Part shown: one piece after another, positions 30,345-34,413 of the stretch
How positions within the stretch are numbered: position 1 is the stretch's first letter
Layout of the letters: the number at the start of each line of letters is the position of its first letter
Assembly: GCA_965649055.1 (NCBI GenBank)
Contig: CBFGJG010000013.1
Coordinates: forward strand, 1 to 41,777
DNA length: 41,777 bases
Source: a candidate division WOR-3 bacterium
Lineage (GTDB): Bacteria > Hydrothermota > UBA3072 > B12-G15
Direction: 5' to 3'
Made by a program: the position numbers and the translations under genes
Notes under the pieces: model-generated
Seen by the model: the letters and a program-made list of their open reading frames with translations, nothing else
Databases searched by the model: none
What the model was told of the DNA's origin: nothing

Positions 30345-31010
30345 ATGAAACTTTCAATAATAATTCCTGTTTATAATGAAAAGGATTTTATTGAAAAGTT
30401 AATAAATCTTGTGAAAGAAATACCTGTTGAAAAAGAGATAATAGTTGTTGATGATTGTTCAAAAGATGGGACAGGTGAAGTTATAAAAAAAATAGAAGGG
30501 ATTAAGGCAATCTCACATGATATAAATAAGGGAAAAGGGAGTGCAATAAGGACAGGATTACAGTATGCGAAAGGTGAATACACAATAATTCAGGATGCAG
30601 ACCTTGAATACAATCCTTTTGATATTCCGAGGTTATTTGATTATGCTATTAAAAACAGTATTTATGCTGTATATGGTTCAAGGTTCAAGGGAAAGGGTAA
30701 ATTTCTTCCTCATAGTTATTTTGCAAATAGAGTCCTTACAATGTTAACTGATATTTTATTTGGTGGGAATATCTCAGATATGGAAACCTGTTATAAACTT
30801 GTTAGGACTGATTTATTAAGGTCATTAAATCTGAAATCAAAGAGATTTGAAATTGAACCAGAAATAACTTCAAAATTGTTAAGGAAAAAAATAAAAATTC
30901 ACGAATTGCCAATAAGATACAAAGGAAGAACCGAAAGTGAAGGTAAAAAAATTCATTGGAAAGATGCAGTTGTAGCAATAATTGTATTATTTAAAATCTT
31001 CATAAGTTAG
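30345..31010 (+). CDS. Glycosyltransferase family 2 (DPM/DPG-synthase-like)
   Basis: SIIIPVYNE, VDDCSKDGT, NKGKG, QDADLEY and DMETCYK motifs. Confidence 0.92.
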   Translation: MKLSIIIPVYNEKDFIEKLINLVKEIPVEKEIIVVDDCSKDGTGEVIKKIEGIKAISHDINKGKGSAIRTGLQYAKGEYTIIQDADLEYNPFDIPRLFDYAIKNSIYAVYGSRFKGKGKFLPHSYFANRVLTMLTDILFGGNISDMETCYKLVRTDLLRSLNLKSKRFEIEPEITSKLLRKKIKIHELPIRYKGRTESEGKKIHWKDAVVAIIVLFKIFIS

Positions 31011-31033
31011 GTGTCAGGTCTTGACATTTGACA
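31010..31033 (+). repeat. Left terminal inverted repeat
   Basis: 24/24 match to the reverse complement of 31983-32006. Confidence 0.95.
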
Positions 31034-31048
31034 AAAATTTAGTATATT
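31021..31048 (+). promoter_or_regulatory. Transposase promoter TTGACA-N16-TATATT (leaderless)
   Basis: The -35 lies inside the left IR and ATG 31055 lies 6 nt after the -10. Confidence 0.6.
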
Positions 31049-31054
31049 GAAACT

Positions 31055-32002
31055 ATGTCCAGACCTTTAAGAATTGAGTATCCAGGTGCATTCTATCATG
31101 TGGTAACGCATGGTAATGGAAGAATATGGTTGTTTAAAACGGATGCTGATTACAGGAAACTGCTTGATATTTGCGGTGAATATAGTATTAAATACAGGGT
31201 GAATGTCCATGCTTTTCTACTTATGAGAAATCACATACATCTTGTTGTAGAGACCCTGGAGCCAAATCTGAGCCAGTTTATGTGCCAGTTTCTAAGAGGA
31301 TATGCCATGTATTACAACAATAAGACAAACAGATGCGGGAGTGTATTTAAGACACATTATGGTGCATTTTTAATCCAGAAAGATAGGTATTACGAAAATG
31401 TTATTGGTTATGTTTATAATAATCCTGTAAAGGCAGGAATTGTAGAGAATCCATATGAATATAGATGGAGCAGTTTATATTATATTATGAATCCAGAAGC
31501 CTTGAAAGAAATTAGATGGTTTAGCCCTGAAATATCTTTATCCATTTTAGGTGGAATAGAAAGAATTAGGGATTTAATTTCTTCAAAAATACAAGATTTT
31601 CCTGTATTACACAATGTGTTTATAGGTGATAAAGAATGGGTTGATAATTTAATTAAGAAAGTTAAGGTTTATGAAGAAACAATTGGTTCTCAGAAGATAA
31701 AAAAATCCGTGATTTCTCCAGGTAATATAATTGAAATCGTTTCTAAACATTTTAATATCAGTAAAAGTAAGATTATAGAAGGAAAGAATAAAGACGCAAC
31801 AATGATTACTATATATTTAATGTCAAAATTTACTTCATTGAAGATGAAAGAAATAGGAAAGATTTTTAATTTGAGTGGATACACGGTTTCTCAGAGGCTC
31901 AAAAGATTTAAGGAAAATAAATTGAAAGACAGAGAAAAGATAATTGATCAGCTAACTCGGAATATAATAGAAAAATTAAAAATGTCAAATGTCAAGACCT
32001 GA
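31055..32002 (+). CDS. Y1/HUH transposase, REP-associated tyrosine transposase-like, with C-terminal DnaA domain IV-like HTH
   Basis: MSRPLRIEYPGAFYHV, LMRNHIHL (HUH), YVYNNPVKAG..YRWSS; C-terminal IIEIVSKHFNIS..IYLMSKFTSLKMKEIGKIFN..TVS. Confidence 0.88.
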   Translation: MSRPLRIEYPGAFYHVVTHGNGRIWLFKTDADYRKLLDICGEYSIKYRVNVHAFLLMRNHIHLVVETLEPNLSQFMCQFLRGYAMYYNNKTNRCGSVFKTHYGAFLIQKDRYYENVIGYVYNNPVKAGIVENPYEYRWSSLYYIMNPEALKEIRWFSPEISLSILGGIERIRDLISSKIQDFPVLHNVFIGDKEWVDNLIKKVKVYEETIGSQKIKKSVISPGNIIEIVSKHFNISKSKIIEGKNKDATMITIYLMSKFTSLKMKEIGKIFNLSGYTVSQRLKRFKENKLKDREKIIDQLTRNIIEKLKMSNVKT

Positions 32003-32006
32003 CACC
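31983..32006 (-). repeat. Right terminal inverted repeat
   Basis: TGTCAAATGTCAAGACCTGACACC, which contains the transposase stop codon. Confidence 0.95.
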
Positions 32007-33170
32007 ATGAAGGTGTGTTTCCTTACGCTTGGATGTAAGCTTAATCAGTATGATGCGGAAAGATTGAAAGAAATACATATTAAAAAAGGTGATATTATCG
32101 TTTCAATAGATGAAAAACCTGATATTATTTATGTTAATACCTGTTCTGTTACATCTCTTGCTGGACATCAGTCAAGGAATCTATTTAGAAGGGCTAAGAA
32201 GATAACGGATAAGGTTTTGGTCCTTGGATGCCATGCAAAACTCTTCCCAGAAGAATTTGATGGTGCAGAATTTTACAATTCAGAAGATAATGGAATAAAC
32301 GTATTCCAGGAAAGGATGAGGGCTTACCTTAAGATACAGGAGGGATGTAATAATTTCTGTTCATATTGTATTGTCCCTTATGCAAGGGGGGAAAATAGAA
32401 GTGTACCACCTGATAGGATTCTTGAAGAGTTAGAAAAAAAGATAGATTCTGGATACTGCGAAATTATTTTAACAGGAACACACATAGGAAATTATTACTA
32501 TGATGGTATTAAACTAAAAGATGTTGTTGAGATGATTCTAAAAAGGAAAGTGCATCTTAGGTTATCATCATTGAGTCCCTCTGAAATTGATGATAGTTTT
32601 ATCCATTTATTTGAATATGAAAATCTCGCCCCTCATATTCATATTTCACAGCAGAGTGGTGATAATAAAATCTTGAAACTTATGAGAAGAAAATACACAA
32701 GGGAAGATACTATAAAGATAGTTGAGAAAATAAGAAAGGTAAGAGAAGATGTAAATATAGGTGCTGATTTCATAGTAGGTTTTCCATACGAAGATGATAA
32801 TGCATTCCAGAATTCACTGAAACTTATAGAAGAGGCAAACTTTACCTATCTCCATATATTCAGGTATTCACCAAGACCTTTTACACTTGCAAAACTATTC
32901 GAAGATAATGTTTCTGATAAGAAGAAAATAGAAAGGTCAAAGGTAATGAAAGAATTTGGTGATAAAAATAATTATAGATTCAGAGAAAAAATGCTCGGGA
33001 AGGTTTACAAGGTCTTCCCTGTCAGAAAATTTGATAAACAGGATAAAATGTATTATGGATTTACTCCAAATTATATCAGGGTTCTTTTCAGTAAAGAGCC
33101 GTTCTATGAACCTACATATGTCAGAATAACAAAGATAACTATGGATAGGACTTATGGAGAGAAGGCGTAA
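32007..33170 (+). CDS. mtaB: tRNA t6A37 methylthiotransferase MtaB
   Basis: TLGCKLNQYD, NTCSVT, KIQEGCNNFCSYC and EIILTGTHIG. The family-typical N-terminus MKVCFLTLGC begins at ATG 32007. Confidence 0.88.
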   Translation: MKVCFLTLGCKLNQYDAERLKEIHIKKGDIIVSIDEKPDIIYVNTCSVTSLAGHQSRNLFRRAKKITDKVLVLGCHAKLFPEEFDGAEFYNSEDNGINVFQERMRAYLKIQEGCNNFCSYCIVPYARGENRSVPPDRILEELEKKIDSGYCEIILTGTHIGNYYYDGIKLKDVVEMILKRKVHLRLSSLSPSEIDDSFIHLFEYENLAPHIHISQQSGDNKILKLMRRKYTREDTIKIVEKIRKVREDVNIGADFIVGFPYEDDNAFQNSLKLIEEANFTYLHIFRYSPRPFTLAKLFEDNVSDKKKIERSKVMKEFGDKNNYRFREKMLGKVYKVFPVRKFDKQDKMYYGFTPNYIRVLFSKEPFYEPTYVRITKITMDRTYGEKA

Positions 33171-34413
33171 ATTCCATATTATAACATACGGTTGTCAGAT
33201 GAATGTTTATGATTCCGAAATCCTAAAAGAAATACTTGTTAATGATGGATATGAATATACAGAAGAAATAAACGATGCAGAAGTTATACTTATAAATGGT
33301 TGTTCAGTCAGAAAACATGCAGAGGAAAGGGCAATAGGAAGATTCCTGAACCTTAAAAAAAATGGTATAAAAATTGGATTTGTTGGATGCCTTGGGAAAA
33401 ATTTAAGGGATAAAGGCTTTGTTCTTGCGGATTTTCTTATTGGTCCGGATGAATACAGAAATGCTAAGAATATTATTGAAAATTCAGATTTTGAAATTTC
33501 TGAATTTGAAACATACGACGATATTATACCTGAACAGGAAGATGTTTCGGTCTATGTGGCAATTACAAGAGGATGTAATAATTTTTGTTCATACTGCATA
33601 GTTCCATATTTGCGAGGACCTTTGAGGGCAAGGCCTTATGAATCCATCTTGAATGAGGTAATAAAACTTAAAAATAATGGGGTTAAAGAGGTTATACTTG
33701 TTGGACAGAATGTTAATGAGTATAGATACGATTCTATTGATTTTTTAGGACTTTTAGGGATGGTTAAGGATACTGGTATTAAAATGATATCTTTCTTGAC
33801 ATCTCATCCAAAAGATGTAAACTTGGATATATTTAGATTGATGAAAGATAATGAAAACATTGTTAGATACCTGCATCTTCCAGTGCAATCAGGTTCTAAC
33901 AAAATTTTAAAATTTATGAATAGAGGTTATACAAAAGAGGAATATATTGAATCAATAATGAAAATAAGGGAAATTCTTCCTGATATAACTATTACAACAG
34001 ATATACTTGTTGGTTTCCCGGGTGAAGAAGAGAAGGATTTTATTGAGACGCTTGAAATGATACAAAAAATAAGGTTTGATTTTGCGTTTATGTTCAGGTA
34101 TTCAGCAAGGGATAAAACCCTTTCTTCTCTGATGGATGAAAAAATGGATGATAAAGAGAAAAAAAGGAGGTTAGAGGAAATAATAAAGACACAGTATAAA
34201 ATTACAAAAGACAAATCTTTAGCAATGATTGGTAATAATAGAAGATGTATAGTTATGAAAAAGGCAAAAAGAGGAGGTTTTCTCTGTAAAGATTTTACAG
34301 GTAAAAATATAATAGTTAAAGAAGATGTGAATATTGGTGACGAAGTAATTGTAAAAATAATAGATGTTAAGGGAAATACACTTATAGGAAAAATCCTTAA
34401 AAAGGAGGAATAA
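33154..34413 (+). CDS. miaB: tRNA i6A37 methylthiotransferase MiaB
   Basis: TYGCQMNVYDSE, CSVRKHAE, GCNNFCSYCIVPY, GQNVN and a TRAM-like tail. Confidence 0.88.
   Translation: MERRRKFHIITYGCQMNVYDSEILKEILVNDGYEYTEEINDAEVILINGCSVRKHAEERAIGRFLNLKKNGIKIGFVGCLGKNLRDKGFVLADFLIGPDEYRNAKNIIENSDFEISEFETYDDIIPEQEDVSVYVAITRGCNNFCSYCIVPYLRGPLRARPYESILNEVIKLKNNGVKEVILVGQNVNEYRYDSIDFLGLLGMVKDTGIKMISFLTSHPKDVNLDIFRLMKDNENIVRYLHLPVQSGSNKILKFMNRGYTKEEYIESIMKIREILPDITITTDILVGFPGEEEKDFIETLEMIQKIRFDFAFMFRYSARDKTLSSLMDEKMDDKEKKRRLEEIIKTQYKITKDKSLAMIGNNRRCIVMKKAKRGGFLCKDFTGKNIIVKEDVNIGDEVIVKIIDVKGNTLIGKILKKEE

Follow-up and report, generated by a model that had tools for sequence, protein, structure and literature searches.

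A TIRtron in a candidate division WOR-3 bacterium: a RAYT-like HUH/Y1 nuclease gene bracketed by cognate, genomically dispersed terminal inverted repeats

Results and Discussion

A Nuclease Gene between Exact Inverted Repeats

The stretch of DNA analyzed here (the window, 41,777 nucleotides) is contig CBFGJG010000013.1 of assembly GCA_965649055.1, from a candidate division WOR-3 bacterium. It carries a 997 bp unit at 31010–32006 in which one transposase-like gene lies between terminal inverted repeats (TIRs). We identify this unit as a TIRtron. Its gene, a TIRYT, encodes a RAYT-like HUH/Y1 nuclease for single-stranded DNA that also carries a fused DnaA domain IV-like helix-turn-helix (HTH) domain. 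A repeat search of the window returned an exact inverted repeat of 24 nt (100% complementary), with arms at 31010–31033 and 31983–32006 and 949 nt between them. These two arms are the only copies of the 24-mer in the window at up to three mismatches, and none of 100 shuffles gave any. The only open reading frame (ORF) between the arms (31055–32002, forward strand) encodes 315 amino acids, and its TGA stop codon at 32000–32002 falls within the right arm. The first-pass annotation, made from the letters of the window, had described a single HUH/Y1 gene packed compactly between symmetric ends, with an exact 24-bp repeat pair and the stop codon inside the right repeat, and this anatomy was confirmed. 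Positions of all features are collected in Table 1.

Pfam Y1_Tnp matched residues 14–123 of the protein (E 2.4e-8, 34.6 bits, cut-off 23). N59-H60-I61-H62 forms the HUH motif and Y119-V-Y-N-N123-P124 the tyrosine motif, as the first pass had read them. In an alignment of 20 divergent homologues, H60, H62, Y119, and N123 are invariant, and the Y---NP signature and a W138-S139-S140 (WSS) motif downstream of Tyr119 are conserved. The best NCBIfam model was REP_Tyr_transpos (NF047646) with 62.4 bits, under its cut-off of 80; transpos_IS200 reached 17.8 bits against a cut-off of 55. Toward the C-terminus, Pfam Bac_DnaA_C matched residues 224–272 with 31.0 bits (cut-off 31.5), and NCBIfam DnaA models matched residues 205–307. 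The AlphaFold (AF2) model, with a mean predicted local distance difference test score (pLDDT) of 87.5, has two domains, a low-confidence linker at residues 209–218, and C-terminal helices at residues 222–311. The top PDB match by Foldseek was E. coli TnpA-REP on a REP hairpin (4er8_A; E 4.3e-7, TMt 0.77, root-mean-square deviation (rmsd) 2.3, 150 columns), followed by the IS608, ISDra2, and IS200 transposases (2vjv, 2xma, and others). For the C-terminal domain, the match was the M. tuberculosis DnaA DNA-binding domain in complex with its box (3pvp_B; TMt 0.80, rmsd 1.9, 95 columns). As modeled, the protein shows the TnpA-REP fold and motifs together with a DnaA-type DNA-binding domain. A scan with the single protein gave eight distant matches to its N-terminal part, all in other phyla.

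Units of this kind have been described. In the text of Di Nocera, De Gregorio, and Rocco (2013, BMC Genomics 14:522; PMC3733652) compared here, RAYT-like genes flanked by long TIRs unrelated to GTAG repeats are named TIRYTs/TIRtrons, some TIRs share the motif GGGGWSAS, and TIRs overlap gene ends. The same text reports "moderately abundant families of TIRs" occurring as singles, dimers, and groups, as well as genomes with several TIRYTs bearing different TIRs. In the compared text of Quentin, Siguier, Chandler, and Fichant (2018, BMC Genomics 19:475; PMC6006769), TIRYTs form TnpA-Y1 subclass 2.1, found in 14.9% of strains. There, Y---NP is the signature of class 2, a short serine motif beside the catalytic tyrosine marks subclass 2.1, and group 2.1.2 has a Bac_DnaA_C-like or HTH C-terminus without REP-like hairpins. 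GGGGWSAS is judged unlike the DnaA box, and the role of the HTH is left open. With the TIRtrons of the 2013 text, the present unit shares a RAYT-like HUH/Tyr gene, long non-REP TIRs, a TIR overlapping the 3′ end of the gene, dispersed TIR families, and several TIRYT genes with different TIRs in one genome. With group 2.1.2, as given in the 2018 text, it shares the Y---NP and serine motifs, a length among those of the longest members, a Bac_DnaA_C-like C-terminus, low copy number with low identity, and no REP-like hairpins near the gene; by these features it is a probable member of the group. The unit is a well-preserved member of a described and widespread class. The first-pass proposal of a candidate undescribed mobile element class is unsupported, the family being already on record, in these passages, in the sense of having been named in 2013 and described again and classified in 2018.

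Three Gene/Repeat Systems in One Genome

The host assembly (G000; 2.08 Mb, 31.6% G+C, 93.8% complete), in which the window is contig C13, contains 21 copies of the TIR 24-mer (TIR-A) at up to three mismatches: 15 perfect, five with one mismatch, and one with two. The reversed control gave none. The first pass had noted the absence of a REP array, which holds within the window and fails for the genome, given these counts. The gene itself is single copy. Two paralogues, at C18:7375-8229 and C10:46874-47707, are 32% and 28% identical to it, respectively, and these three Y1_Tnp genes (mutual identity 28–32%) are all that the genome holds. A TnpB-type gene (PF07282) was not found in the 93.8%-complete genome, in line with the absence of TnpB stated in the first pass.

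Each of the three Y1 genes is framed by its own perfect inverted repeat of 24, 23, or 28 nt. That of the C18 paralogue is GGGGTCAGCCTTCTCATTTCTCA (23 nt, family C) and that of the C10 paralogue is TGGGGTCAGTCATAAACCTTCAACCTTT (28 nt, family B). Families B and C are dispersed too, with 31 and 9 copies, respectively, at up to four mismatches. By a crude ORF map, 49 of 62 repeat rows lie entirely outside ORFs of at least 90 amino acids and the remaining 13 touch ORF ends; the intergenic share of the genome by the same map is only about 8%. The genome therefore holds three gene/repeat systems with different tails, each repeat amplified to 9–31 mostly intergenic copies. All three co-resident systems are amplified here, whereas in Koribacter only one of three is, according to the compared text of the 2013 paper.

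TIR-A occurs as singles, as three inverted pairs, and in clusters with TIR-B or TIR-C. Among the 21 rows, 13 are single or stand beside a repeat of another family, six form the three pairs, and two flank the gene. Solo A copies run 6–13 nt past the 24-nt core, where they resemble the left (…GACAAAAAT) or right (…GACATTTTT) inner flank of the gene unit. Beyond 30–37 nt, nothing else of the unit is repeated in the genome. The three pairs bound mini-elements of 167, 178, and 335 bp with their heads outward (Table 1). Their interiors are homologous (138 of 184 positions agree between C49 and C11), and none of the three has a visible flanking duplication. Solo repeats and derivatives resembling miniature inverted-repeat transposable elements (MITEs), both of which the first pass had proposed to look for, are thus present. 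A single-copy Y1 gene whose flanking inverted repeat is dispersed intergenically, with one family per gene, corresponds to the arrangement of RAYTs and REPs rather than to a lone TIR transposon.

The likeness to RAYT/REP and REPIN systems extends to the closest fold and the closest NCBIfam model. The differences are a GGKGTCAG head in place of a GTAG/GGAG-headed palindrome or a significant hairpin, a protein about 150 residues longer that includes the DnaA-type HTH domain, repeat copies in the tens and not hundreds, and a score under the NCBIfam RAYT cut-off. IS200/IS605 elements (IS608, ISDra2) share the HUH/Y1 fold, and as in them a target-site duplication is not visible at the unit or the mini-elements. 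They differ from the unit, which is single copy, lacks subterminal hairpins and TnpB, and has symmetric inverted ends and Y---NP where IS200 has Y---Q. Insertion sequences of the DDE type with TIRs differ in that the only ORF of this unit is HUH/Y1 and in that duplications are missing at the unit and at all three mini-elements.

Further repeats were observed beside these families. A composite of TIR-A, a gap of 7–12 nt, TIR-B, and about 100 nt more occurs at C11:9529-9671, C18:1226-1354, and C20:12480-12617 with 82–92% identity. Behind TIR-B there often come a CTTTTC-TTGTA-GAAAAG hairpin and a longer repeat with a periodicity of about 150 nt, abundant on C7 and C4. A 65-nt stretch at C18:1150-1214 is 100% identical at the ends of at least 20 other contigs (C9, C10, C21, C30, C36, C37, C42, and others), and presumably marks the border of a high-copy element at which the assembly breaks.

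Repeat Architecture and Genomic Position

All three families begin sharply at a common head, GGKGTCAG. A T stands at −1 before the head in 43 of 61 copies, with otherwise a weak A/T preference in the 5′ flank; no clear tetranucleotide emerged from the 5′ flanks of the 61 copies as a specific target motif. The head of the unit's own TIR, GGTGTCAG, fits the published GGGGWSAS at 7 of 8 positions, and the heads of both paralogues, GGGGTCAG, fit it at 8 of 8. Behind the head, each family has two tandem direct hexamers 7–8 nt apart: cTTGACA-tTTGACA in A, cTTCTCA-tTTCTCA in C, and AACCTTc-AACCTTt in B. This layout (at least 5 of 6 matches at an offset of 7–8) is present in 16 of 20 TIRs from homologue loci, against an average of 2.0 and a highest count of 7 among 500 shuffles; the TIRs are related and not independent (L015, L017, and L019 are near-identical), so that 16 of 20 overstates the case. 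Neither the layout of head and two tandem hexamers nor the stop-adjacent position reported below is mentioned in the published TIRYT text compared.

Folded as a DNA single strand, TIR-A gives nothing beyond a 5-bp stem (−3.2 kcal/mol; z −0.8 and −1.5 relative to shuffles), and the values for TIR-B and TIR-C are −0.3 and −0.2 kcal/mol, respectively. The repeats are not REP-type palindromes, and there is no significant hairpin in A, B, or C. We also considered the hexamers as DnaA boxes. By eye, TTTGACA matches the consensus quoted in the compared text of Quentin et al. only in its last three letters (ACA), and this identity was rejected. The variable tandem hexamers behind the head would be a more likely target of the HTH domain than the GGGGWSAS head.

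Solo copies are enriched directly behind genes. Of 55 solo copies, 11 have the head no more than 5 nt past the stop codon of a co-oriented ORF. Random intergenic sites (300 draws) averaged 1.0 and never exceeded 4, and matching the null for the 3-nt 5′ flank did not change the outcome. In three of the stop-adjacent copies, and at window positions 31008–31010, the first G(s) of the TIR supply the end of the TAG. REPs, too, are predominantly downstream of coding regions, according to the abstract of Di Nocera et al. (PMC3733652).

Two other roles were considered for the repeats and rejected. As portable promoters, the TIR-A copies gave 7 promoter-like sites in the region against 6.6 expected, with mixed orientation to downstream genes, and families B and C lack −35-like hexamers; a promoter role is not a general function of the repeats. 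Pairing of the left TIR with the start region to block read-through translation was suggested by an 11/12 inverted match seen by eye (AGGTCTTGACAT / ATGTCCAGACCT) and was not supported: RNA folds of six homologous leaders were no stabler than shuffles (z −1.0 to +2.0), and TIR-start pairing appeared in only two of the six minimum-energy folds. The antisense promoter-like site at 31961–31988 (reverse strand), a consensus match only, might yield an antisense RNA.

Homologues, Locus, and Mobility

A homologue is present in 32 of 41 related genomes, the window's own included, and most have several divergent ones of about 300 amino acids. Perfect flanking inverted repeats of at least 17 nt (17–38 nt) were found at 24 of 32 loci examined, about 40–85 nt before the start codon and at or just past the stop codon. 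At the other eight loci the best perfect repeat is 8–15 nt; two of these are ended by a contig end, and several have imperfect repeats split by exact matching. Among 20 homologue TIRs, 14 heads are of the GGKGTCA type and four are GGGACGG. The test of homologue flanks for GG(G/T)GTCAG-type repeats, which the first pass had proposed, thus came out positive. TIR-A is multi-copy only in G000 (21 copies), G014 (9), G039 (7), and G027 (5) of the 41 genomes, and in G014 and G039 a TIR-A variant flanks the best homologue of this gene. The nearest orthologue, in G014, is 45% identical, with a TIR one base different. It lies at another locus (L013; C516, gene-oriented 1454–2447), between a 208-amino-acid ORF and a PP-loop (MnmA-like) tRNA-modification gene. 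Three genomes of the same family as the host have neither TIR-A nor a homologue above 30% identity.

The unit is wedged tightly between its neighbors. Upstream lies a GT2 glycosyltransferase gene, whose TAG stop codon (31008–31010) shares its last G with the left arm. Downstream lies an MtaB-like radical-SAM gene, whose ATG at 32007 begins at the first base past the right arm. The flanks read GTTA|...|ATGA, and a target-site duplication is not visible. Taking the element out between TTA and ATG would leave TAATG, an overlapping GT2 stop and MtaB start; this is a deduced and not an observed allele.

Contigs of four public runs (X1–X4) were compared with positions 30400–32600. Contigs of X1, possibly the source sample, span both junctions with 0–2 differences. 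Contigs of X3, from another study (a hot springs metagenome), are about 90% identical and span GT2, the left TIR, and the gene, breaking at the right TIR. X2 and X4 gave only short or unrelated pieces. In the contigs of the four runs no joint skips 31010–32006, and no empty site, circle, or excision joint was seen; since assembled contigs drop rare variants, a missing joint is no evidence of immobility. The first pass had held that relatives all carrying the gene at this locus, with no empty allele, would speak against a mobile element, and this was partly what we found: in the only close relative seen, that of X3, this locus is likewise occupied by the gene, and an empty allele did not turn up.

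Of 25 genomes, 23 gave MtaB-like genes. Ahead of the MtaB loci inspected in 21 relatives, over a distance of up to 1500 nt (less where the contig ends sooner), there is no GT2 or TIRYT homologue, and six of the upstream stretches showed no similarity to the window by tblastx.

Some observations concern the neighboring genes themselves. Positions 32007–34413 hold a tandem pair of radical-SAM methylthiotransferase-like genes (UPF0004 and Radical_SAM; the second also with a weak TRAM match), and the two genes lie side by side at each of the 21 loci inspected in relatives, bar one ended by a contig end. The ATG of the MtaB-like gene directly follows the TIR, and no Shine-Dalgarno-like sequence is visible ahead of it. 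A 5-bp stem, ACACC-ATGAA-GGTGT at 32002–32016 (forward strand), joins the outer end of the right TIR with codons 3–4 of this gene and encloses the ATG. The G014 locus is a different one, yet the orthologue there again lies directly before a gene for a tRNA-modifying enzyme.

Table 1. Features of the unit at 31010–32006 and related repeats elsewhere in the genome (window coordinates unless a contig is given)
Feature	Position	Strand	Description
Left TIR (TIR-A)	31010–31033	+	GGTGTCAG head, then two tandem TTGACA hexamers; exact 24-nt inverted repeat; 21 genomic copies
Promoter-like site TTGACA-16-TATATT	31021–31048	+	11/12 consensus match only; reads into gene; −35 is the first TTGACA of the left TIR
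TIRYT gene	31055–32002	+	315-amino-acid RAYT-like HUH/Y1 nuclease with DnaA domain IV-like C-terminus; single copy in genome
Y1/HUH catalytic core, residues 14–123	31094–31423	+	HUH at H60/H62, Y119xxxNP; Foldseek match to E. coli TnpA-REP 4er8_A
C-terminal helical DNA-binding domain, about residues 222–311	31718–31987	+	DnaA domain IV-like HTH (Pfam, model helices, Foldseek 3pvp_B)
Mirror-image promoter-like site TTGACA-16-TATATT	31961–31988	−	11/12 consensus match only; from right TIR, antisense into 3′ end of gene
Right TIR (TIR-A reverse complement)	31983–32006	−	Holds last 6 codons and TGA stop of the gene
Mini-element, 167 bp	C49:2141-2307		Bounded by TIR-A, heads outward
Mini-element, 178 bp	C11:10039-10216		Bounded by TIR-A, heads outward
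Mini-element, 335 bp	C18:1226-1560		Bounded by TIR-A, heads outward; nested TIR-B
Stop-adjacent solo TIR examples	C20:10111, C1:62282, C4:9671, C7:29872, C15:22675, C26:23362

Proposed Mechanism and Alternatives

We propose that the unit is a TIRtron in which the TIRYT gene, bracketed by its cognate TIRs, is a stationary helper acting in trans, and we assign this reading, whose mechanism is deduced, a probability of about 0.8. The C-terminal HTH domain would read the system-specific tandem hexamers and so place the HUH/Tyr119 center at the outer edge of the conserved head, where it would nick one strand and join it again, leaving no target duplication. With one strand nicked at the edge of the head, inverted ends would be cut on opposite strands. 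The gene itself appears to be stationary now, as it is single copy and sits at the same locus in the relative of about 90% identity. The three mini-elements, and the different locus of the G014 orthologue, speak for mobility of TIR-bounded units. The substrates on which its product would act in trans are short TIR units and mini-elements bounded by TIRs, much as is supposed for RAYTs with REPs and REPINs. A −35 box for the gene would come from the left TIR, so that binding there could also autoregulate it.

Several points weigh against this proposal. Most repeat copies are solo ends, which simple two-ended cut-and-paste does not account for. The ORF maps used are crude (ORFs of at least 90–100 amino acids, no gene finder). 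The Bac_DnaA_C score is 0.5 bit short of the Pfam cut-off, the hexamers are not DnaA-type boxes, the TIR head departs from GGGGWSAS at one position, and the homologue TIRs behind the hexamer count are not independent. No rearranged joint appeared in the contigs, and the relatives with MtaB loci are too distant (MtaB at most 63% amino acid identity) to share upstream gene order and so say nothing on an empty allele. Cleavage, binding, or transposition has been reported for no TIRYT in the literature searched, in which the names TIRYT and TIRtron occur only in the descriptive papers of Di Nocera 2013 and Quentin 2018; papers outside it are possible. Every mechanistic step given above is thus inferred.

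The strongest alternative is an active autonomous insertion sequence, in which transposition of the whole unit continues and its own past insertions and deletions have left the solo TIRs and mini-elements behind as debris. Both TIRs are identical at 24 of 24 positions, the unit fits exactly between a stop and a start codon, and the G014 orthologue is as tightly wedged between genes at its other locus. The patchy distribution among relatives, with three same-family genomes lacking TIR-A and any homologue above 30% identity, and the existence of mini-elements with the same TIRs are also consistent with transposition of the unit. However, there is one copy per genome, with paralogues only 28–32% identical, a situation that the compared text of Quentin 2018 (PMC6006769) reads as non-IS for class 2. 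The locus is shared with the relative of about 90% identity, and the contigs contain no excision joint. Decay debris would also look different from a repeat family with 15 of 21 perfect copies and nothing else repeated beyond 30–37 nt. We regard an autonomous element as improbable.

A little less probable still is a fully domesticated DNA-binding protein that moves no DNA any more, the TIR copies being selected operator- or nucleoid-type sites or gene-end RNA elements. Such a role would agree with the DnaA-type HTH domain, with the uniformity of the copies (15 of 21 perfect) next to mini-element interiors that have diverged by 25%, with the 11 of 55 solo heads directly behind co-oriented stops (null mean 1.0, maximum 4), and with the two perfect −35 hexamers and promoter-like sites of TIR-A. 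The invariance of the HUH histidines and the tyrosine across 20 divergent homologues argues instead that catalysis is retained, and homologous mini-elements at three loci need a transposition-like process. A regulatory reading is weakened further by families B and C, which are without −35-like hexamers, and by the mixed orientation of A copies relative to downstream genes. The view of the first pass, a categorically new class joining HUH chemistry to DDE-style TIRs, is very unlikely: the anatomy is as it described and the scores fall below the NCBIfam cut-offs for both RAYT (62.4 against 80) and IS200 (17.8 against 55), but that anatomy, including the GGGGWSAS-type head and the DnaA_C-like tail, is already in print in the compared passages of PMC3733652 and PMC6006769.

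Conclusions

Herein, we describe a TIRtron whose TIRYT gene shares a 2-Mb genome with two divergent paralogues, each with its own dispersed repeat family. Since the class is already described, the finding opens no new category of mobile DNA. Tentatively, and at well under even odds, each TIR may be a two-module "mini-origin" of the kind used by rolling-circle Rep proteins, with the GGKGTCAG head as the nick and joining site for the HUH center and the tandem hexamers as iterons read by the HTH domain. If so, three orthogonal nuclease/repeat pairs could coexist in one 2-Mb genome. A mini-origin would also explain the copying of single 30–37-nt TIR units, and not only of two-ended elements, to sites directly behind stop codons. 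TIRYTs would then recognize double-stranded and cut single-stranded DNA, unlike the hairpin-guided IS200/IS605 and RAYT paradigm. The practical value of the genome is as a compact natural test set, made up of three divergent enzymes, a cognate repeat family for each (one shared head, distinct hexamer tails), and three mini-elements. Such a set suits the question of whether reading of the tail falls to the DnaA-like domain and cutting at the head to the HUH center.

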